Notes: a model not told the origin generated them from the letters alone. Numbered from the stretch's first letter, positions 27,938 through 37,315 are shown. The stretch: 41,341 nucleotides of DNA from Candidatus Kaiserbacteria bacterium (GCA_007116405.1 SKIN01000038.1:1-41341), one strand, 5' to 3'. Numbers and translations are program-made.

Positions 27938-29056
27938 ATGAAGATCGTCATCGCTACACCGGTATTTCCACCCGAACTGCATGCGGACGCGCAACGCCTC
28001 TTTGGCCTTGCGACACACCTTGCGAAGGAGCATACGGTACACGTGGTCACGTACGGAACAAGTCACGTGCCGACAGCCGATGTCTCCGTCACCTGTGTAG
28101 ACCGGCATGTACCGCTACGCAAGCGTATTCGGGCGTTCACGAAAGCACTTATTGAAGCTTGCGACGGCGCTGATGTTCTATACGTACACGGCAGCGGCAT
28201 CATAGGACTCTCCGCGCTACGGGCACGGCGCAAGCGCCGCGTACGACTCGTGATACACGTACCACATGACGCGGTATGGGAGTACGCGTCTCGATACTTC
28301 AATGAACCCCCATCGGAGCTGCTGGAGGATCTCTACGCTGACATGAGCGTCCGTGCACTACTGCTTGGGTACGCACAACGGTTCTTGTTGCGTCGGGCTG
28401 ACACCATCATAACCGAGACACAACGGCATGCCCGCCTCCTCGAACGAAGATACGGCATTAAACCGGGTGTCTGTGCTGTGGCTCCCACTCGGGCGCAGGA
28501 CCCCGTTGTGCTGCCGTTTACTCCTGCACGTCGTGTGCATAAACTACTCCTCACCATCCCCTCCGACGAGAGCAGAATACTTGCCGGGGAGTTGCACGCG
28601 CTCGAGGTGCTGCAGCAGCGATACCCGGATACGGAACTCGTGCTCTTGCGGACGACATGCTCGAACTTTAGAACGGAGGAAGCAAGCGGAAAGAACATAC
28701 GCTGCCTCAGTGCCACGACTCGTGCCGAACGCTGGTACGAAGCACAGACCGCCGACGCACTCGTGATGCTCGACCACAGCTTTGCCGACCAACGCGCGCT
28801 CGTGGACCTCCTTGGGATGGGGATACCCATCGTCGCATCAGAGACCGGACTGTGTGCGGAACTCTTTGGTCTCAATGTCGTACATGGGTATGAACCGGAG
28901 AAACCGGATACCTTGACCGAAGTGCTCGCGGGTCTCTTTGATGATCCGGCACAAGGTGAACGCAGTGTCCGCGCGGGCACCGCTCTCCTTAGCGAACGCC
29001 ACAGTGCAACACAACACATGCAGGATGTATTGGCCATCTTTCAAAAAGGATCATGA
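27938..29056 (+). CDS. GT-B (GT4-like) glycosyltransferase
   Basis: MKIVIATPVFPPELHADAQRLFGLATHLAKEHTVHVVTYG and C-terminal LLGMGIPIVASETGLCAELFG. Confidence 0.85.
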   Translation: MKIVIATPVFPPELHADAQRLFGLATHLAKEHTVHVVTYGTSHVPTADVSVTCVDRHVPLRKRIRAFTKALIEACDGADVLYVHGSGIIGLSALRARRKRRVRLVIHVPHDAVWEYASRYFNEPPSELLEDLYADMSVRALLLGYAQRFLLRRADTIITETQRHARLLERRYGIKPGVCAVAPTRAQDPVVLPFTPARRVHKLLLTIPSDESRILAGELHALEVLQQRYPDTELVLLRTTCSNFRTEEASGKNIRCLSATTRAERWYEAQTADALVMLDHSFADQRALVDLLGMGIPIVASETGLCAELFGLNVVHGYEPEKPDTLTEVLAGLFDDPAQGERSVRAGTALLSERHSATQHMQDVLAIFQKGS

Positions 29057-30048
29057 AGCAATTCAACCAAGAGACGTGGGAGGCATACCTTGAAAAGGAA
29101 CTTGGTGTCCTTGTACCACTCCTTGCCAGCGAGGGGGTGACTCTCGATGAAGACCCGTATCTTCCAGGTGCCTATGCAGTGCCTGAAGCGCCGATACTCA
29201 CACTGCTCGGCACTCACACCGAAAGCGGAAAGCGGGTGGTGGTGCAGGTGACTTCCGACCCGGGTACCGCAAAAGAGCTGACGCGCGACACCGAGCGCCG
29301 CGAATGTGTCGAGCGACACGGGTGCCTTCCCCTCACTATACGTCTGCCGGAGGAAGTTGCGTTTGGAAGACGTGACATGCACACGTTCATGGTGACTGAA
29401 TACCTCTATGAAGATCGATCGTTTTCAGAGCTGTCCCTTGAAGATGCATTCTTTTTTGCACTCCGCATCCTTGAGGCACAAGAACAAACTCCTCCGATGC
29501 CGTATCGGGCAATGCGTGCCGCAAACAAGCTCTTTGATACCTACACAGCGGAGCGTTATGTGAACACCCTGCAGCGGTATCGCCGGGAAGTGTCGAAACT
29601 GCTCTCTGAACACCAGCAGACGCAGGAAATGCTCGCTTTGGCCGGAGCGACACTACTGCGTGAACGGGAGCGCATTGACCGTTATACGGGCACCCTACTC
29701 TACCGCAAAGCATCTCCGGAGACTGTACGCATCTCCGATGGAGAGATGTACCTTCTCGACCACGCCCTCTTCCATTTTGGCAACCGATATGAGAGCTGGG
29801 CACATTTCATTAATTACTGCGCTCTACACCGACCCGAGGTCGAGGCCGCGCTTGTCGACTATGTGCACGCCAATCGCGGCCCTGAGGTTGCAGAGGTGCT
29901 CCGCATCATGCGACTCTTCACTCTCGTGGAAGTGATACATGAGGATGCTCGTGCTCGCGAACGGGTAGAAGCGAACAAGGTCGCTGACATCGAAGTCCGT
30001 ATCGATTTTTGGACCGCCGTACTGCAAACTCAATTATCGACACGATAG
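29053..30048 (+). CDS. Hypothetical protein with an aminoglycoside-phosphotransferase/protein-kinase-like fold and a non-canonical catalytic loop
   Basis: ATGA overlap with the GT gene. LLYRKASPETVRISDGEMYLLDHALFHFGNRYESWA aligns to APH(3')-II [40 protein letters not shown]..N becomes YRK..T, while the metal-binding D (LLDH) is kept. Confidence 0.6.
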   Translation: MKQFNQETWEAYLEKELGVLVPLLASEGVTLDEDPYLPGAYAVPEAPILTLLGTHTESGKRVVVQVTSDPGTAKELTRDTERRECVERHGCLPLTIRLPEEVAFGRRDMHTFMVTEYLYEDRSFSELSLEDAFFFALRILEAQEQTPPMPYRAMRAANKLFDTYTAERYVNTLQRYRREVSKLLSEHQQTQEMLALAGATLLRERERIDRYTGTLLYRKASPETVRISDGEMYLLDHALFHFGNRYESWAHFINYCALHRPEVEAALVDYVHANRGPEVAEVLRIMRLFTLVEVIHEDARARERVEANKVADIEVRIDFWTAVLQTQLSTR

Positions 30049-30092: not shown

Positions 30093-31544
30093 TTATTGTT
30101 TTCCGTCCTCTATCTCTATCTCGATATCTGAAAGTGGATCGTCTTCGACGCGTTCCCTGCGTGTGATGGTGATCATGACAAAGACCGCAAGGATGCTTAC
30201 AACTAGCGCAAGTACCGACCACCATAGGAAGGACGCGGAGTCATCTTCTCGTGCAACCACAGCGATGACCTCATCCTGCACCGGTTCCTCGGCTTGCTCC
30301 TGTTGCTCGATCGCGGGTGGCGGAGGAGGTGTGGCGGTGGCAACAGGTACGGCTCTCTGTATCTCGGGACTCGTTGCCGCTTCAGCGAGCACCATGGGTT
30401 CAACGGTACGGAAGGTGGAAAAAACGGCGCCGCTCGGATGGAGAAGTGTGACAAGTGAACGAGAGGCTCTGCTGAGACCGGTCACGGCTGAGTGAAAACG
30501 AATAGTGTGGTCCGCAAGGATGCGGGTGCTGTCCGGGATACGAAACCGTACATCGCCTGCAACCAGGGTGAACCCGGAAAGGTCAACCTCTACAGCACTC
30601 TTGTTCTGTACCTCGATGTACTCATCCGTCGCGCCGATGATGTCGAGTTCCGGGGCGGCAACGCGTACGACCATGCGCGCCTCCGCGGAAAGTTCACGGG
30701 TGAAGTTGGTGCGTTTTCCTACTACCAAGACCGCGTAAGAGCCCGGGTAGCGATAGGTGTGTGTTGGAGTGGCTCCACGCACCACTGTGCCGTCGCCAAA
30801 GTTCCAGACCGCTTCATGAAGGTCGGTCTCGGTGCCTCCCTCCCGGAATGCCTGGACACGAAACGTGGTGGGAACCCCGGCGGTGACTGTCTGCTCAAGC
30901 GGCAACAGAAGCGTGAGTGCGGGCTCCAAACGAACGCGCACTGTACCGCCGTCGACCGTTGATGACTCTATGGTGCGTACACTGCTCCCGATCGCGGGTG
31001 GTGATACAGAGGTGGATGGTGGACTCTGCCCTGCCGCAGGTTCAGGAGCGCGCGGTGTCCCTCCCCCCATTCCCGGAGTGGGTGGCGCAGTAATGAAGCT
31101 ACTCACCGGGGGGTTGCCGGAACGCTGTAAGGTGTCTTTGGTGACATTGTCACCGCCTATCGCCCAGTTGTCCGACCCGTCCACGCGGTCAATGAGGACA
31201 CCATTTGCATCGCGGAGTTCAAGTATCTCGCCTGTATTCCCGAGTGCGCCGGTGTAGATGAGGAATGCCGGAATGCCGGGCACAGTATCATCACTGGTGC
31301 GCTCAAGGAGCGCGAAACTGTTCTCACGGAGAGTGCCGGAGAGCTTGATGTGCGGCTGACCATCGACAGCCGAGAGCGTCCATCCGTCGAGAGTTTGTGT
31401 GGAACCGGTATTGTAGAGTTCTATCCATTCGGCATTTGCATTACTCGCGCTTCCCATCCACGCCACTTCACTGATGACTATCGACGCATGCGAAATAAAC
31501 GGTACACTCGCGGCAATGATGGCCGCGATGAATGCGTAGGGCAT
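30093..31544 (-). CDS. Surface protein: signal peptide, lamin-tail domain (LTD), PKD-like domain, second LTD-like domain, C-terminal TM anchor with an acidic cytoplasmic tail
   Basis: IVISEVAWMGSASNANAEWIELYNTGSTQTLDGWTL (LTD), AVWNFGDGTVVRGATPTHTYRYPGSYAVLVVG (PKD), DEYIEVQNKSAVEVDLSGFTLVAGD (LTD), TM WWSVLALVVSILAVFVMITI, and tail RRERVEDDPLSDIEIEIEDGKQ. Confidence 0.85.
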   Translation of the reverse strand: MPYAFIAAIIAASVPFISHASIVISEVAWMGSASNANAEWIELYNTGSTQTLDGWTLSAVDGQPHIKLSGTLRENSFALLERTSDDTVPGIPAFLIYTGALGNTGEILELRDANGVLIDRVDGSDNWAIGGDNVTKDTLQRSGNPPVSSFITAPPTPGMGGGTPRAPEPAAGQSPPSTSVSPPAIGSSVRTIESSTVDGGTVRVRLEPALTLLLPLEQTVTAGVPTTFRVQAFREGGTETDLHEAVWNFGDGTVVRGATPTHTYRYPGSYAVLVVGKRTNFTRELSAEARMVVRVAAPELDIIGATDEYIEVQNKSAVEVDLSGFTLVAGDVRFRIPDSTRILADHTIRFHSAVTGLSRASRSLVTLLHPSGAVFSTFRTVEPMVLAEAATSPEIQRAVPVATATPPPPPAIEQQEQAEEPVQDEVIAVVAREDDSASFLWWSVLALVVSILAVFVMITITRRERVEDDPLSDIEIEIEDGKQ

Positions 31545-31548
31545 TGTG

Positions 31549-33600
31549 TTATGAGAGATTAGGTCTGTCGACTCGTAAGATCGCTTCGAGTTCTTTCTTT
31601 GGCACTTCAGGAGGTGCCGTCGTTGTTTCCTGCTTTGGGGCGACGCGCTCGGACGCTTTCAATGCGGGAGGTGCAGTGACCGCAACATCGAGCGGACGCT
31701 CTTTCTCCGGGGTGGGCGAAACGGGTGGTGTGGCGATTGCAGGCTCGGGAGTACCCGGTTCCGTTTGCTTTGGGACTGTCTTCTGTGCCTGTGTGGGCGC
31801 TTCTTTGGTGAGCTTGGCGAGCAGATTCCGCAATTCACCTTTATCCTCTTCTGTTGCTCCCTTGCCATCATCACGCCGCACAGGAGGAGTTGGTTTGGTC
31901 ATGGGACTTGGTTCCGGCCTCACCGGGGGTGCCTGCTTGCGCTCTTGTTGGGGGCGAGGAGGGTCGCCCGTCGAACGCCCGGTCGCTTCGTTGGTCAACT
32001 TGGCGAGTATGTCGCGGAGCCCCTCCGAACGCACGGGGGGCGTGTGGTTCATGGTGGTTACCGGTGCCTCGCGTGGTCGTTCGGGGGAAGCAAGAGAACG
32101 TGTGAGCGTCCGCGTGGCTGCCCCGGGATGCGGCCTGTTTGGTGCACCTGTTCCGCTACGAACTGTCCGCGGAGCTGCCGGTGGCCGACTGGAGACCGGG
32201 GGCGCGCCCCCAGCACGTTCCGCTCGACGTTCCGCTCGTGCCCGCTCTTTTGTCTCTGCGTCGGGGTCCTCGTACTTCTTGCCAACCCATGTGCTGATGT
32301 CTTCTTCGACCTCGGCTCGTGGACGGGAGTACTGCGCACGCGAGAACGCGATGACGCGGTCGCCGTGGTCGACCTCCGGTGCTTCGATGGGCGGCATCGT
32401 GACAGCGCTGAACGGCTGACTCGACACGCCATCGATCATGAGTTTCAGGTATATTTGGCGGGCGCCAAGGTTCACCAGATCATCGGCCGTAAAGACGGGA
32501 GCGAACTCCTTTTCCAGCACTTCGGCATCGTAGCTTCCCACTCGAAACGCCATCATGGTGCCGACGTTTCCGAATACAGCGGCTCGAACCTCGTCCTCCA
32601 TTTGCTCTATATACTGGTGCGCTATGGTGAGTGCGAGCTTGTATTTACGCGCCTCGGAAAGGATGTCCGCAAACGATCGGTTGGCAAAGTTCTGAAACTC
32701 GTCGACGTACAGGTAGAACGGCGGAAGGAGTCGGGCCTCCGATGCCGGCACATCGGCGCGGCTCATGGCGGCGAGGTAGATCTTGGTGATGAGCATGCTC
32801 CCCAACAGGTTTGCGTTGCCCTCACCGACCCTACCCTTTGAAAGGTTCACGATAAATATCTTGCGCTCGTCCATGAGTGTGCGTATATCAAACGCACTCT
32901 GCTCCTGGCCGATTATGTTGCGCACCAGTGCGTTTGAGGCGAACTGTCCTATCTTGTTTTGAATGGCAGGTGTCGCCTCTTGGGTGTAGCGGTCGGTGTA
33001 CTTACTGTACTCATCGACCCAAAAACTGCGCACTGACGGATCACTGATCTGTGCAATGACATTCTTGCGGTACTCCTTGTCGATGTACATGCGGTTGACA
33101 CCGAGGAGTGTCGCGCCGGGATACTCGAGGAGAGCGGCAAGTGTGTTCTGCAGGATGTAGGCCATACGCGCACTCCACGCATCGACCCATATCTTTTCGA
33201 ACGTACTCATGAGGCCGGCCACGACGAAGTGACGCTTATCCGCACCCACGTTCTCAAGGACGTTGAACGAGATCGGATACTGCATGTCAAACGGGGCGAA
33301 GTACAGGACGTCTTTGACACGCTCTTCCGGAACGTATTGGAGAAGTTTCTCCGCGGTGCCCCCGTGCGGATCGATGAAGCAGATGCCTTCCCCGTTCCTG
33401 ATGTCCTGAATGGCCATGTTCTCAAGAAGGGTGCTCTTGCCCATGCCCGTCTTTCCGATGACGTAGGAGTGCCGAGACCTGTCCTCTTTCTTTATGCCGA
33501 AGGGTGTTCGCTTATTGCGCGTGTCCGTTACCGCAAAATAGGTAACATGCTCGTCGTCGGGTACGTCTGTATGTGGTGAGGAGAACTCAGGGGGTGTCAT
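31549..33600 (-). CDS. TraD/TrwB/VirD4-like (type IV coupling protein-like) P-loop NTPase without TM segments, with a C-terminal Pro-rich disordered tail of about 230 aa
   Basis: Walker A IGKTGMGKSTLLENMAIQD..CFIDPHG, Walker B FYLYVDEFQNF, LALTIAHQY. The tail is ...APPVSSRPPAAPRTV... with a repeated LR(D/N)(I/L)LAKLT(N/K)EA motif. Confidence 0.8.
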   Translation of the reverse strand: MTPPEFSSPHTDVPDDEHVTYFAVTDTRNKRTPFGIKKEDRSRHSYVIGKTGMGKSTLLENMAIQDIRNGEGICFIDPHGGTAEKLLQYVPEERVKDVLYFAPFDMQYPISFNVLENVGADKRHFVVAGLMSTFEKIWVDAWSARMAYILQNTLAALLEYPGATLLGVNRMYIDKEYRKNVIAQISDPSVRSFWVDEYSKYTDRYTQEATPAIQNKIGQFASNALVRNIIGQEQSAFDIRTLMDERKIFIVNLSKGRVGEGNANLLGSMLITKIYLAAMSRADVPASEARLLPPFYLYVDEFQNFANRSFADILSEARKYKLALTIAHQYIEQMEDEVRAAVFGNVGTMMAFRVGSYDAEVLEKEFAPVFTADDLVNLGARQIYLKLMIDGVSSQPFSAVTMPPIEAPEVDHGDRVIAFSRAQYSRPRAEVEEDISTWVGKKYEDPDAETKERARAERRAERAGGAPPVSSRPPAAPRTVRSGTGAPNRPHPGAATRTLTRSLASPERPREAPVTTMNHTPPVRSEGLRDILAKLTNEATGRSTGDPPRPQQERKQAPPVRPEPSPMTKPTPPVRRDDGKGATEEDKGELRNLLAKLTKEAPTQAQKTVPKQTEPGTPEPAIATPPVSPTPEKERPLDVAVTAPPALKASERVAPKQETTTAPPEVPKKELEAILRVDRPNLS

Positions 33601-33606
33601 ACCGTA

Positions 33607-33612
33607 AGTATA
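33607..33612 (-). promoter_or_regulatory. -10 hexamer TATACT, 6 nt upstream of ATG 33600 (leaderless)
   Basis: Minus strand reads CTCATTTATACT-TACGGT-ATGACACCC. Confidence 0.45.
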
Positions 33613-33699
33613 AATGAGAAGGGTATCTCGACAAAGGCGCCTGGCGGTATTGTCTGCGCCGTTCTTTCAGGTCACTCGACTGTAGCGCGCCGTGACGCG

Positions 33700-35112
33700 T
33701 TAGGCATCCAGTAATGCCTCGCGTGTGTACCTGTTGCTGGGCGCCCACAGCATCCATGAGTGAAGACCCACGTCGTAGGTTGCCTGGATCTGGGCGCGTA
33801 CTTCCGCCGGACCGTAGGTGCCTCCGTAGTTAAAGTCCTGCAGCCAAGGACGGATGATATTGGGGTCATAGACCTCTTTGGTGTAATACCCGGTGAAGAC
33901 CTCCTTAGTGGTGGTCGCCGTCCCTGTCGCTGTGGGCGGAACGATGACGGTCTCCATGATGGGGGTTCCGCCAAAGTGTGGCACGCGCGTCCTGTCGGCA
34001 ACCGCGCGCTGGACGCCGCTTGCAAGCACATACTTGATGAGTTCGTAGGGTACAGTGTTCGGGTTCGCCCAGCCGTTGAACCCGCGCGGATAGTGACTCG
34101 GATAGACCATAGGGGCGATGTAGTCAAAATAGGGCATGGCACGCTCGAGCACTTGCCCTATACCGAGGTCGTCGAAATTAGTGGTGACCATACCGAATAG
34201 ATCCGCTGAGATAATTGGGGGCTCGACTCCGGCGGGAAAGTTGTTCGGGTCGCGCATCTCCTGCGAGAGGTAGACAAAGAATTCTTCGAGCGCCTCCGCC
34301 TTTACTCTGTCACCTGACCATTCGTACTTGATGTTGCCCATAGGGCCATCGGAGGGATAGCGGATGTAGTCGTAGTTGAGCTCGTCGAAGCCGAGGGCGT
34401 GCGCTTCTTTACTGATAGTGAGTATGTAGTCCCAGAAGGGTTTCGCACCGACGTCGATAAAAGCAAGGCCCTTGTGATCCTTCCAAATGGCGCCGGGAGG
34501 GTCGGCAAACTTGACCGCCAATTCCGGATGTTTGTTGGCGTAGAACGGATCTTGGAACACAGTGATACGTCCGATGACAAAGATACCTTTCTCATGGAGC
34601 GTGGCGATAAAGCCTTTCATGTCGCGGGCACCGCATTTGTCGGACACTGAGTCACGCAGGTCCGGGTGGTCAGTGGTAAATGCAAGCTTGCCTGTGTAGT
34701 CCTTGATGTCGATCATCACCGCATTGAGCTCCGTTTCCTCAATGAGGTGCACCAGTTCCGAGCGGAACCATGGGGTACCGACAACGCACTGGGTCATGTA
34801 AATGGCCCGCACCGAGTCCGGTATGGGGACGTAGTTTGGAATGGTTGTGGCGATAGGGCGCTCCGGGGTTGTGGTCGCTACGACAGACTCGGTCTCTATC
34901 TGCTCTACCGGCTCAACGGCCACCACGCCATCATCCTTCACCGCTCGAGGGTCACGCGGGTCGTAGACCACCTCGTGGAAGGTGGGGAGTATGAAAAAGA
35001 GTCCGGCACCTGCTGCAGTAGCAACGGTCCCAAGGACAACTACCATTTTCCCCGATGGACCTCGGGGAGGACGCCGCTTATTGTTCTCTGTCTGCGCTCT
35101 GGACATGTTCAT
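33700..35112 (-). CDS. Membrane-anchored putative glycoside hydrolase-like TIM-barrel protein (DUF4015 / GHL family)
   Basis: AIYMTQCVVGTPWFRSELVHLIEETELNAVMIDIKDYTGKLAFTT, GFDELNYDYIRYP, APMVYPSHY. N-terminal basic segment plus TM VVVLGTVATAAGAGLFFILP. The start is ambiguous (35112, 35106 or 35046). The track start at 35247 would run through the upstream gene. Confidence 0.78.
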   Translation of the reverse strand: MNMSRAQTENNKRRPPRGPSGKMVVVLGTVATAAGAGLFFILPTFHEVVYDPRDPRAVKDDGVVAVEPVEQIETESVVATTTPERPIATTIPNYVPIPDSVRAIYMTQCVVGTPWFRSELVHLIEETELNAVMIDIKDYTGKLAFTTDHPDLRDSVSDKCGARDMKGFIATLHEKGIFVIGRITVFQDPFYANKHPELAVKFADPPGAIWKDHKGLAFIDVGAKPFWDYILTISKEAHALGFDELNYDYIRYPSDGPMGNIKYEWSGDRVKAEALEEFFVYLSQEMRDPNNFPAGVEPPIISADLFGMVTTNFDDLGIGQVLERAMPYFDYIAPMVYPSHYPRGFNGWANPNTVPYELIKYVLASGVQRAVADRTRVPHFGGTPIMETVIVPPTATGTATTTKEVFTGYYTKEVYDPNIIRPWLQDFNYGGTYGPAEVRAQIQATYDVGLHSWMLWAPSNRYTREALLDA

Positions 35113-35341
35113 GTTCACCGACGGGATGCGTCTCCGGCTCGGAAGGCCCATGCTCCCGGTGGGAGAGGTCTTCTTGCTTGCGCTCCCTCCTCCGTTCGTC
35201 GAGGCGGAAGAACAGCGCGAGCATTGTAATGACGGCACCGAGGGCAAACACGACGTATTCCTTCAATGACCTGGGGATGCCGAGGAGCGGCGTGATGAAC
35301 ACAAAAATACCAAGTATGAACAGCAAGGTCGTCTTACGCAT
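35078..35341 (-). CDS. Small two-TM membrane protein with a charged His/Glu-rich tail
   Basis: MRKTTLLFILGIFVFITPLLGIP...VVFALGAVITMLALFF, then RLDERRRERKQEDLSHREHGPSEPETHPVGEHEH. It has its own leaderless-type promoter. Confidence 0.6.
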   Translation of the reverse strand: MRKTTLLFILGIFVFITPLLGIPRSLKEYVVFALGAVITMLALFFRLDERRRERKQEDLSHREHGPSEPETHPVGEHEHVQSADREQ

Positions 35342-36133: not shown

Positions 36134-37315
36134 CTAGAATGTCGGTGTCACAACGTAGATGAGTGTCGTCGTGTAGTCGCTGCCTGCTTCCTGAAGACCG
36201 GATATCTCGAGTTTGTAGCCAACTCTTGTGGCACCGATACCTGGCGTTATGCCATCCGCAGCACCATCATGATACATCACCTCGCGGGGTTCTTGGATGA
36301 AATTACCCGCATAGAGCGCACCATCAAACGAGTTACCATCGGTAAGCGTAGTGTCGCTGGTAGTGAGCCCCCAATGACCGTATGTACCCGGAGCAGCGGG
36401 GTCGGCCGACGGAACAACCCATCCCGTGGGTACTTCCGTTCCCAGACCGTCGATGAATGAGCTGATGGTAGCGCCCGTAGAGCTCAATAGATCTGCTGTT
36501 GCCTCTACAGTTACCACAAAGCCCTCCCCTGCGTTCGTCGTGACGGAGATGTCCTGCGCAAGCAGGTACTCGTTCCCCGACTCAACGGTCCCGAAAGCAA
36601 GTGAGGTGGCTGTGGTGGTTGCAAAGGTGGTAGTTGTGTCACCGTTCACAGTCTCACCTGCATCGACGCCGAATATCTCAAACGAGAGGAATGTCGCCAC
36701 TTCACCGGTCACCAGCACCGGTTCGACAATGACGATTCGCGTGCGACCGTCATCAGGCATCGTGCCACCGAGCACGAGCTCATAGCTTCCGGGATCGGGG
36801 TGATTAATGATGCGATTCGTGCCCGAAGTCGTATTTTGACCCACTCGTATGGTAACAACACTATCTTCATCAATGTTGGTACCTCCGACACATAGTTCAA
36901 TGGTAATGGTCTGCCCACTTTGACTGACGGCAGCGTCCACACTCCCGCATGATGCGCCAACCGTGAGAGCTGTGGCGTCATCATCGATCTCGACATCATC
37001 AGGCGTAATTGCTGAAACATCAAAGCCGCTCGGCAGAACAATGTCGATAGTGGAGCCGTCAGCGGGAATCCCTGACGGGGTCTTGAAACGAATTGTATGA
37101 TCAGCGCCAATGCCCGGACGGCTGGTTGAAAGCGTGTCGCTAAGCTCGACAAGTTGCTCCGCTCCTGCGCGGGCAAGAAGACCGGGCAAGCCCATTGCCC
37201 ACATACATATTGAAACTATCAGTACTGCTCCGGCATAGGAATACCAGGGCCGCAGTACGTGACCGCGTGATGGTGAATACATGACGTACATGTTTCGTGT
37301 GGTGCGTGACGCCAC
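36134..37315 (-). CDS. Secreted/cell-surface protein of unknown function (two beta-rich domains)
   Basis: Signal-like N-terminus ...WYSYAGAVLIVSICMWAMGLPGLLARA. Thr/Gly/Val-rich beta-strand sequence ending ...AGSDYTTTLIYVVTPTF. The start is uncertain (GTG 37315, ATG 37291 or ATG 37282). Confidence 0.75.
   Translation of the reverse strand: MASRTTRNMYVMYSPSRGHVLRPWYSYAGAVLIVSICMWAMGLPGLLARAGAEQLVELSDTLSTSRPGIGADHTIRFKTPSGIPADGSTIDIVLPSGFDVSAITPDDVEIDDDATALTVGASCGSVDAAVSQSGQTITIELCVGGTNIDEDSVVTIRVGQNTTSGTNRIINHPDPGSYELVLGGTMPDDGRTRIVIVEPVLVTGEVATFLSFEIFGVDAGETVNGDTTTTFATTTATSLAFGTVESGNEYLLAQDISVTTNAGEGFVVTVEATADLLSSTGATISSFIDGLGTEVPTGWVVPSADPAAPGTYGHWGLTTSDTTLTDGNSFDGALYAGNFIQEPREVMYHDGAADGITPGIGATRVGYKLEISGLQEAGSDYTTTLIYVVTPTF

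Follow-up and report, generated by a model that had tools for sequence, protein, structure and literature searches.

The gene pair and its promoter

The window considered here is a stretch of 41,341 nucleotides (nt) of Candidatus Kaiserbacteria DNA, from the genome (G000; 600 kb, 79% complete) of an ultra-small Patescibacteria bacterium, which the taxon names attached to its homologs (Pacebacteria, Taylorbacteria, Paceibacterota) assign to the Paceibacteria type. Two adjacent genes on its minus strand are the subject of this analysis. The first encodes an ATPase that resembles type IV coupling proteins (T4CPs; P0001, 683 amino acids (aa), 31549..33600) and the second encodes a type-I membrane protein composed of a lamin-tail domain (LTD), a PKD domain and another LTD (P0002, 483 aa, 30093..31544). 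The ATPase was characterized from its open reading frame (ORF), Pfam matches, an AlphaFold2 (AF2) model, Foldseek, blastp and a maximum-likelihood (ML) tree, and the LTD protein from its ORF, Pfam, AF2 and Foldseek. The account that we regard as probable takes the ATPase for the motor half of a split T4CP-like module with a helix-turn-helix (HTH) protein as partner; the motor gene, relocated in this order, would share its transcript with the gene of an optional, class-level LTD protein.

A promoter-like site of the leaderless type precedes the ATPase gene (33607..33634, minus), with a -35 element TTGTCG, a 16-nt spacer and a -10 element TATACT. In the consensus scan the -10 box occupies 33612-33607 and ends 6 nt ahead of the ATPase ATG at 33600; the scan gave 2 sites against 1.4 expected and is weak on its own. 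A TATACT/TATAAT box is also found 5-10 nt 5' of the ATPase ATG in at least 15 of 28 orthologous loci, and a leaderless start of the gene is plausible. Because of the -35/-10 pair and the conserved box in front of the ATG, the transcription unit is taken to begin at the ATPase gene, and the two genes therefore share a predicted transcript. They are separated by a 4-nt junction (TAA-CACA-ATG, 31545..31548, minus) that is devoid of a Shine-Dalgarno sequence and would suit coupling of the termination-reinitiation type. The original prediction of a leaderless two-gene operon, made from the sequence of this stretch before the present analysis, is thus borne out in its promoter box and its junction, with the start itself graded as plausible. 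It had placed the beginning of the operon at 33612; the gene pair stands, whereas that position belongs to the -10 box and not to the start codon.

The coupling-protein-like ATPase

The ATPase core (aa 1-465; 32206..33600, minus) has a TrwB-like fold that comprises an N-terminal beta-hairpin, a P-loop nucleotide-binding domain (NBD) and an inserted all-alpha domain. It carries Walker A (GKTGMGKST, aa 49), Walker B (LYVDEFQ, aa 297) and IAHQ (aa 326) motifs, and Walker A/B, DEFQ, AHQ and R353 are invariant among 150 homologous sequences. The Pfam families PF10412 TrwB_AAD_bind (27.1 bits, cut-off 20.5), PF12696 TraG-D_C (26.7 bits, cut-off 22) and DUF87 (26.7 bits, cut-off 23.2) match over their cut-offs, and PF02534 T4SS-DNA_transf lies 0.3 bits under its own (19.8 bits, cut-off 20.1). 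The NCBIfam TraD/VirD4 equivalogs reach 36-47 bits against cut-offs of 250-650, and their match is limited to the surroundings of the P-loop.

The AF2 model built with 150 homologs has a predicted local confidence (pLDDT) above 90 over approximately aa 20-465, with the beta-hairpin at aa 19-37 before the NBD and the inserted helices at 120-230 between core strands. When this model was compared with the PDB by Foldseek, the highest template-modelling scores (TM-scores) were those of TrwB, Cag-beta and DotL; TrwB (as TrwB-deltaN70) scored 0.58-0.66 over about 415 columns, or about 415 of approximately 420 residues, and it was also the only PDB match to the ATPase by sequence. HerA gave E-values similar to the best, with lower TM-scores (0.34-0.48). 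Neither the HAS-barrel of HerA nor the alpha and gamma domains of FtsK are present in the ATPase, in which just the beta-hairpin precedes the NBD, and the relative G012 has, next to recA, a distinct gene for a canonical FtsK (752 aa, four transmembrane segments, alpha and gamma domains). The earlier description of a coupling-protein-like P-loop NTPase with intact motifs therefore holds, and the protein groups structurally with TrwB, Cag-beta and DotL instead of with the HerA/FtsK-like housekeeping families. A HerA-type defence system was considered and rejected, as PADLOC gave only weak mad8/HerA matches and the ATPase is a core gene.

All 8,000 scored database candidates matched the ATPase core, and the 120 best were 75-96% identical over it. 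All 41 relatives of the order have an ortholog, with identities of 57 to 88% inside the order, and so do 99 of the 101 genomes that represent the phylum at large. Each genome usually encodes a second paralog as well, of about 920 aa, in which the same ATPase is fused to a PF26449 N-domain.

The core is followed by a disordered Pro/basic tail (aa 466-683; 31552..32205, minus) of low pLDDT, with 19% Pro and a pI of 10.1, in which three short conserved helical motifs are embedded. The first, LRDILAKLTNEA (aa 528-539; 31984..32019, minus), reads [S/A]L[K/R][D/E][A/V/I]L in orthologs; the second, LRNLLAKLTKEA (aa 590-601; 31798..31833, minus), is conserved in the order; and the C-terminal one, EVPKKELEAILRV (aa 665-677; 31570..31608, minus), has the order consensus E[IV]PE[ED]xL[KR]x[LIM]L. 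AF2 places tail helices at 526-539, 584-599 and 668-675. The C-terminal motif was present in 28 of the 28 order orthologs read, those with no LTD neighbour included, and all three motifs are kept across the order, also in genomes without such a neighbour.

In other classes the disordered tails of the ATPase hold a treble-clef zinc finger (PF23477 zf_Tbcl_2, E 1e-10 to 3e-12; loci L060, L062, L063, L067, L074, L081, L085 and L087) with the pattern CxxC...VPFxP...RPxYCxxC. The same finger occurs as a stand-alone 50-aa frame at the start of a 102-aa ORF just 3' of the ATPase in L064 (3554-3862), and it has been lost from the tail in the order of the window.

The split protein and its anchor half

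No transmembrane segment is present in the ATPase polypeptide, whose top 19-aa Kyte-Doolittle mean (KD19) is 0.99. The description of an anchor-less ATPase is hence correct for the polypeptide, and fails in so far as an anchor half does exist, encoded by a gene of its own in all 41 relatives. The key to this was a fused relative, G046, in which the ATPase forms the end of a single 941-aa protein, behind a hydrophobic N-terminus and a domain of some 380 aa. A tblastn search of the N-terminal part of G046 against G000 identified a 419-aa ORF on another contig (G000:C25:5534-6793). By blastp, aa 32-419 of this C25 protein align to G046 26-425 (E 5e-30) and aa 17-555 of P0001 to G046 430-941 (E 4e-170), and the two alignments are contiguous on G046 without overlap. 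These comparisons identify the ATPase as the motor half of a split protein, with the anchor half encoded elsewhere in the genome.

The same two halves recur throughout the phylum, where an anchor-like gene lies directly 5' of the ATPase in 26 of 28 non-fused loci. At the N-terminus these anchors are hydrophobic (KD19 1.6-2.6), and their last residues read PPxNLP; those of the C25 protein read APANLPV. Within the order the anchor is found in 41/41 relatives and is never next to the ATPase, the distance exceeding 100 kb wherever the two are not on different contigs. The ML tree groups P0001 with its order (100/100) in a clade nested among anchor-adjacent motors; the order motors are sister to a same-class member (100/99) and stand apart from the PF26449-fused paralog (100/100).

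The neighbourhood of the anchor gene on C25 contains LeuRS, a DNA-binding protein of the Sigma70_r4/HARE-HTH type, the anchor, YceG/MltG and MnmA. All 5 genus loci and 12 of 14 phylum loci have the Sigma70_r4/HARE-HTH gene 5' of that of the anchor. The conserved core module therefore consists of HTH, anchor and motor, and the motor is separated from the other two in this order. Since the anchor half exists as a gene of its own, the LTD protein need not be the tether of the ATPase. The relation of the anchor to DUF8128 is based on phmmer and blastp, and PDB sequence searches with the anchor and with the LTD protein gave no match.

Further genes accompany the module in parts of the phylum. For example, SecD/SecF-like genes are located directly 5' of the HARE-HTH, anchor and motor array in many phylum loci (L099-L110); they were recognized by eye, without a profile search, from N-termini such as GLDLQGGTHLVY and GLxxGIDFTGG. 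Likewise, family f140 has an extra T4CP-like ATPase paralog of 492-494 aa that is 42-44% identical to P0001 (L112 3268-4746, L113 2693-4177), and this paralog, along with small ORFs, separates the anchor gene from the motor ortholog, with the LTD gene 3' of them all.

The LTD-PKD-LTD surface protein

The second gene of the pair encodes a protein that begins with a signal peptide (aa 1-20, ...SHA / S; 31485..31544, minus), assigned from the sequence, a model helix at 2-12 and a hydrophobic N-terminus in all orthologs. The first lamin-tail domain (aa 22-155; 31080..31481, minus; Pfam LTD 3.4e-16) resembles lamin B1/B2 tails (TM-score 0.65-0.72 by Foldseek). The PKD domain (aa 209-297; 30654..30920, minus; PKD_4 1.4e-10) resembles the PKD domain of the collagenase ColG (TM-score 0.62-0.65), and the second lamin-tail domain (aa 298-380; 30405..30653, minus) corresponds to the second LTD stretch and to a beta-sandwich at 300-378 with pLDDT above 94. 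A Pro-rich stalk connects the ectodomain to a transmembrane helix (aa 437-461; 30162..30236, minus; 437-467 in the model), which starts with a conserved WW and is supported by orthologs and AF2. The protein ends in an acidic cytoplasmic tail of 22 aa (aa 462-483; 30096..30161, minus).

Pfam LTD scores 60 bits over 2 stretches (cut-off 34.3) and PKD_4 41.5 bits (cut-off 27). The AF2 model (pLDDT 83.8) consists of an N-terminal helix, three Ig-like beta-sandwich domains and a transmembrane helix. Pfam and AF2 thus agree on a type-I membrane protein with an LTD-PKD-LTD ectodomain, as had been proposed. The proposal had further suggested a nucleic-acid role, with reference to the frequent fusion of bacterial LTDs to nucleases or other hydrolases, and this part finds no support. 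Pfam, the AF2 model and Foldseek detected no nuclease, phosphatase or other catalytic domain in the protein, and NCBIfam ExeM reaches 17.4 bits against a cut-off of 1300, within the LTD region only. In addition, the first LTD is acidic (pI 4.2), and DNA tethering is therefore unsupported. A role of the ectodomain as an adhesin, a spacer or a contact element would be the simplest reading of the model.

Conservation of the ATPase-LTD pairing

An LTD ortholog lies directly 3' of the ATPase, on the same strand, in about 30 of the 41 order genomes. The gap between the two genes has a median of 3 nt over 19 loci, and many pairs overlap. Where an order locus lacks the LTD gene, glycosyltransferase genes come next after the ATPase, whose tail motifs are the same as elsewhere. 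Among the 31 genomes of the class with a near-full-length LTD homolog, 9 have it directly behind the ATPase and 1 has it at a distance of 6 kb. The pair is hence conserved in other genomes, those of about 30 of 41 order members and 9 class members of other families.

In five loci of other families the HTH, anchor, ATPase and LTD genes are found together on one strand. Three of these arrays are strictly contiguous (L114, L116, L117), one has an additional small ORF (L115), and one has the additional ATPase paralog and small ORFs (L113). The LTD gene would therefore have joined the module before the motor moved, and then moved along with it. Outside the class the genes 3' of the ATPase include mnmA, pgk, cca, HAD and others. 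The ATPase-LTD pairing is real, old and recurrent, and it is facultative.

The acidic tail of the LTD protein

The original prediction also gave the acidic tail a part. It suggested that the two proteins make up a minimal device by which nucleic acid is taken up, exported or tethered at the surface, and that the tail could recruit the soluble, basic-tailed ATPase to the membrane. Some of the evidence is consistent with this idea. The two genes are tightly coupled (4 nt here, a median of 3 nt elsewhere) and stayed together when the module broke up, and a T4CP without a transmembrane domain that binds a neighbouring membrane protein has a precedent in TraJ/TraI of pIP501 (PMC7434980). The tail itself, RRERVEDDPLSDIEIEIEDGKQ, has 9 acidic and 4 basic residues among its 22 aa. 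Across most of the order the tails share the short motif [DEG][FYW]x[IL][IVE][DE], which is DIEIEIE here and is exemplified elsewhere by EVIEGFEIESDE, DAFTIVEE and EEYKIIE. A scan of 699 ORFs of G000 found the motif on the LTD protein only, and a general sorting signal was accordingly rejected. A strongly acidic cytoplasmic tail occurs otherwise in G000 only on a polytopic membrane protein on C10 and on a 130-aa single-transmembrane protein (G000:C34:8253-8645), whose very acidic, repetitive C-terminal tail reads IEADLDLGIPEIDDIDAELAEIELMIDMEVEDL.

The tail is not general, however. The LTD partners of sister orders stop a few residues after the transmembrane segment, and the same-lineage ortholog P0304 is tail-less while its gene overlaps that of its own ATPase by 8 nt. 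The tail cannot then be a requirement for adjacency, as both P0304 and the sister-order partners are placed behind the ATPase. Anchor hydrophobicity, moreover, does not track the presence of the LTD protein across the order. An LTD protein substituting for a degenerate anchor was rejected on this point, given that the order anchors keep hydrophobic N-terminal segments whatever their LTD status. Because tail-less partners adjoin the ATPase and anchor hydrophobicity is independent of LTD status, the acidic tail appears from these comparisons to be order-specific and not an obligatory tether. The existence of the acidic tail is thus confirmed for this protein and its order, and its generality is not; recruitment of the ATPase to the membrane through it is made unlikely by the anchor in 41/41 relatives and by the tail-less partners.

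The motors outside the order (L061-L086, L113-L118) end in a strand-like (L/I)KPG(D/E/Q)x(I/V)x(F/L) sequence of the LKPGDTIKF type. The order motors lack such an end and have the helical E[IV]PEExLKxLL instead, and a similar strand-like acidic motif is found on the LTD tail (30096-30161). The strand-like motif may have moved from the motor to the LTD protein in a single event, with L050 and L119 as exceptions, and this is offered as a lead and not as evidence.

Genomic context and rival readings

The rest of the window outside the gene pair is housekeeping in character, with Mur ligases, an rsmI-like gene, DUF4015, GT4, CofD, SecA, an F-type ATPase operon and GatB as neighbours. The DUF4015 gene (33700-35247), which encodes a glycosidase-like protein anchored by a transmembrane segment, lies 5' of the ATPase, and the same order is seen in 17 of 28 order loci (L022-L049); in relatives, sugar epimerase and GT4/GT2 genes lie 3' of the LTD gene. 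The relocated motor gene thus sits within a conserved envelope/glycan neighbourhood. Two ORFs have no Pfam match, one of 331 aa (29053-30048, plus) and one of 393 aa (36134-37315, minus); the former is convergent with the LTD gene at a gap of 44 nt and has a homolog in the same neighbourhood in L022. The window contains no tRNA or Rfam match.

This neighbourhood lends itself to the reading that there is no functional link at all between the two genes. The LTD-PKD-LTD protein would then be an ordinary surface or adhesin protein of an envelope/glycan neighbourhood, held beside the ATPase by synteny inherited in compact genomes. The order rsmI, DUF4015, ATPase, LTD, followed by an epimerase and glycosyltransferases, is conserved as such a reading would have it, and the LTD-less loci have glycosyltransferases directly after the ATPase. 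The LTD-PKD-LTD homologs are unlinked in 21 of 31 class genomes, and the LTD proteins evolve fast (22-48% identity, compared with 57-88% for the ATPase). What speaks for a link is that adjacency persists in at least five families or orders, whether the gene ahead of the ATPase is the anchor or DUF4015, that start/stop overlaps are frequent, and that a promoter ahead of the ATPase gives a shared predicted transcript. Plain synteny is, on balance, a possible and rather unlikely explanation.

Another reading takes the ATPase for an ordinary coupling protein of a relaxase-less type IV secretion system (T4SS) of Patescibacteria, feeding effectors or nucleic acid to a distant VirB4-type channel, with the LTD protein as a surface adhesin like those of Gram-positive T4SSs. 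The fold is that of a T4CP, and the relative G012 encodes a VirB4-like 611-aa P-loop_TraG/AAA_10 ATPase among unannotated small genes; 19 of 21 relatives have weaker matches of the AAA_10 type, in ORFs of about 605-715 aa. In the retrieved passages of a recent survey, T4CP genes are often far from virB4 and the T4SSs of monoderms use adhesins (PMC12102498). The same passages count 5,713 VirD4-type homologues in 2,918 of 3,035 Patescibacteria genomes, of which only 148 are near virB4, and report that the t4cp homologue is non-essential in Southlakia, where the T4SS is essential, with exaptation 'not ruled out' (Quinonero-Coronel et al. 2025, PMC12102498). PF03135 was found in only 1 of 21 relatives; this profile is probably insensitive to the monoderm VirB4 types, and PF12846 and PF19044 did detect a VirB4-like gene in relatives. 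No VirB4-like gene was detected in the incomplete genome G000, and no relaxase, VirB4, pilin, integrase or other T4SS gene is found in the 41-kb window, as the original prediction had noted. ComEC occurs in 19 of 21 relatives and was not detected in the incomplete G000; as it has no linkage to the locus, a connection with DNA uptake was set aside. The ATPase has as its conserved partners an HTH protein and an anchor that carries an additional 380-aa domain, and not T4SS parts. A dedicated T4SS coupling protein is hence judged unlikely, and this reading is compatible with parts of the explanation that we prefer.

A bolder version of the split-module account would hold that HARE-HTH, anchor and motor form an autonomous, phylum-wide and T4SS-independent nucleic-acid machine of the envelope, which gained the LTD protein at the level of the class, and that in this order the strand-like LTD motif [FYW]x[IL][IV][DE] replaces in trans the LKPGDTIKF-type end that motors of sister orders carry themselves, and so wires the two proteins together physically. 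In this strong form the proposal is doubtful; if true, such a machine could, for example, acquire or process host DNA or RNA.

The two-protein device of the original prediction is the least probable of these readings, as a dedicated anchor half is present in all relatives, tail-less partners stay behind the ATPase, about a quarter of the order has no LTD neighbour while its ATPase tail motifs are unchanged, the LTD neighbour is absent outside the class, anchor hydrophobicity is independent of LTD, and the ectodomain has an acidic first LTD and no catalytic domain.

The split module with a facultative LTD companion is thus preferred, and several points have to be set against it. The LTD gene is not beside the ATPase in about 11 of 41 order genomes, it is elsewhere in 21 of the 31 class genomes that have such a protein, and a custom hidden Markov model built from alignment A2 found no LTD partner at any of 28 ATPase loci outside the class. 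Since the gene is missing or unlinked in many genomes and is never 3' of the ATPase outside the class, the link is dispensable and could be plain inherited synteny. The N-terminal segment of the anchor is weak in the genus of the window and in the closest genera (KD19 0.9-1.7; G000:C25:5534-6793, L090-L094, L120-L123). The t4cp homologue is reported as non-essential in Southlakia (PMC12102498), for which redundancy of the two T4CP-like paralogs could account, the genome G000 is just 79% complete, the proposed binding between the unlinked halves is drawn from homology, and DNA as the likely cargo is drawn from homology and the HTH neighbour. As for the weak anchor segment of the genus, it holds Arg residues around a conserved YxPYWxPP turn, and KD19 is 1.6-3.0 elsewhere in the order and the phylum; the segment may be re-entrant or peripheral.

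The claim of a self-contained minimal device does not survive the distribution, with the ATPase in 99/101 phylum genomes and the LTD partner in 0/28 loci outside the class. The LTD protein appears as a facultative companion of the motor, predicted to be co-transcribed with it, and not as its obligatory membrane tether.

Proposed mechanism and its significance

The mechanism proposed for the split module builds on direct observations: the fold and catalytic motifs that are intact, the division into two halves, the way the genes are distributed, and how closely the ATPase and LTD genes are coupled. Almost all Patescibacteria would carry a split chromosomal ATPase of the VirD4/TrwB fold, the window gene being its motor half. 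The other half would consist of a hydrophobic N-terminal membrane segment and a cytoplasmic domain of about 380 aa, represented here by the putative 419-aa anchor gene on C25. In most of the phylum HTH, anchor and motor are contiguous, or anchor and motor are fused. In this order the motor gene would have been relocated, gained its own leaderless-type promoter and become co-transcribed with the LTD gene, and the LTD protein would have travelled with the motor as a facultative companion when the module broke up.

By homology with the coupling proteins, the motor would form a TrwB-like hexamer and dock on the cytoplasmic domain of the anchor at the membrane. With ATP it would pass on or move a polymer, for which the fold and the HTH partner make DNA the likeliest candidate. 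The conserved short tail helices may recruit partners, in the manner of the tails of TraD and DotL. The LTD protein would form an outward-facing Ig-like stalk beside the motor and serve in contact or adhesion, and the motor may, or may not, be contacted by its cytoplasmic motif, which is specific to the order.

A large part of all bacterial diversity is accounted for by Patescibacteria, and these rely on their host cells for building blocks, nucleotides among them. A motor that is kept in nearly every genome sampled across the phylum, together with conserved partners, is a concrete candidate for a core envelope machine. From this locus it follows that what the literature counts as 'orphan, anchor-less T4CP homologues' are halves of a split protein. 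With the anchor and the HTH protein as obligatory neighbours and the LTD protein as an optional one, experiments can target the right partners. A caution for annotation also follows, in that the ATPase-LTD pair is not to be taken for a new minimal secretion or uptake system.

Comparison with known systems

The homologues counted in the survey of Patescibacteria are almost certainly the same proteins, at about two per genome and rarely near virB4 in its retrieved passages, and two paralogs are usual here as well (PMC12102498). The split architecture, the anchor half, the HARE-HTH neighbour and the tail motifs are not described in those passages, and the word 'lamin' is absent from the whole paper (PMC12102498). 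The literature searched for DUF8128, or for a HARE-HTH protein together with a coupling protein, yielded nothing. In the literature searched, these homologues are only counted, and the split, the HTH partner and the LTD companion, which were not found there, seem new.

The LTD protein shares with the ExeM-type LTD nucleases and other bacterial LTD surface proteins a secreted N-terminal lamin-tail Ig-like domain. Unlike the ExeM-type nucleases, it has no catalytic domain and presents three Ig-like beads on a Pro-rich stalk. HerA and FtsK/SpoIIIE belong to the same ASCE pumping-ATPase superfamily as the motor, which is reflected in the DUF87 match and in the similar E-values of HerA; they differ from it in their lower TM-scores and in the HAS-barrel and FtsK alpha/gamma domains that the motor lacks.

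The closest likeness is to the VirD4/TrwB coupling proteins such as TrwB of R388, Cag-beta and DotL, which have the same NBD, inserted all-alpha domain and Walker and sensor motifs, and whose Pfam families TrwB_AAD_bind and TraG-D_C match over their cut-offs, while the NCBIfam equivalogs stay far under theirs. TraD and DotL also have long disordered C-terminal tails with short docking-type motifs, like the ATPase of the window. In contrast to the canonical T4CPs, the window ATPase has no transmembrane domain in its polypeptide and has a separate N-terminal half with an extra domain of about 380 aa. It is, furthermore, encoded by a chromosomal, near-universal core gene, with no mobile element, relaxase or T4SS genes nearby.

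T4CPs that lack a transmembrane domain and have a separate membrane partner are known (PMC7434980). TraJ/TraI of pIP501 and the TraG-TraJ pairs likewise involve a soluble T4CP that needs a separately encoded membrane protein (PMC7434980). The genes of these systems are part of conjugative T4SS operons with the partner adjacent, whereas here the anchor is unlinked, brings a large cytoplasmic domain and stands outside any T4SS operon.

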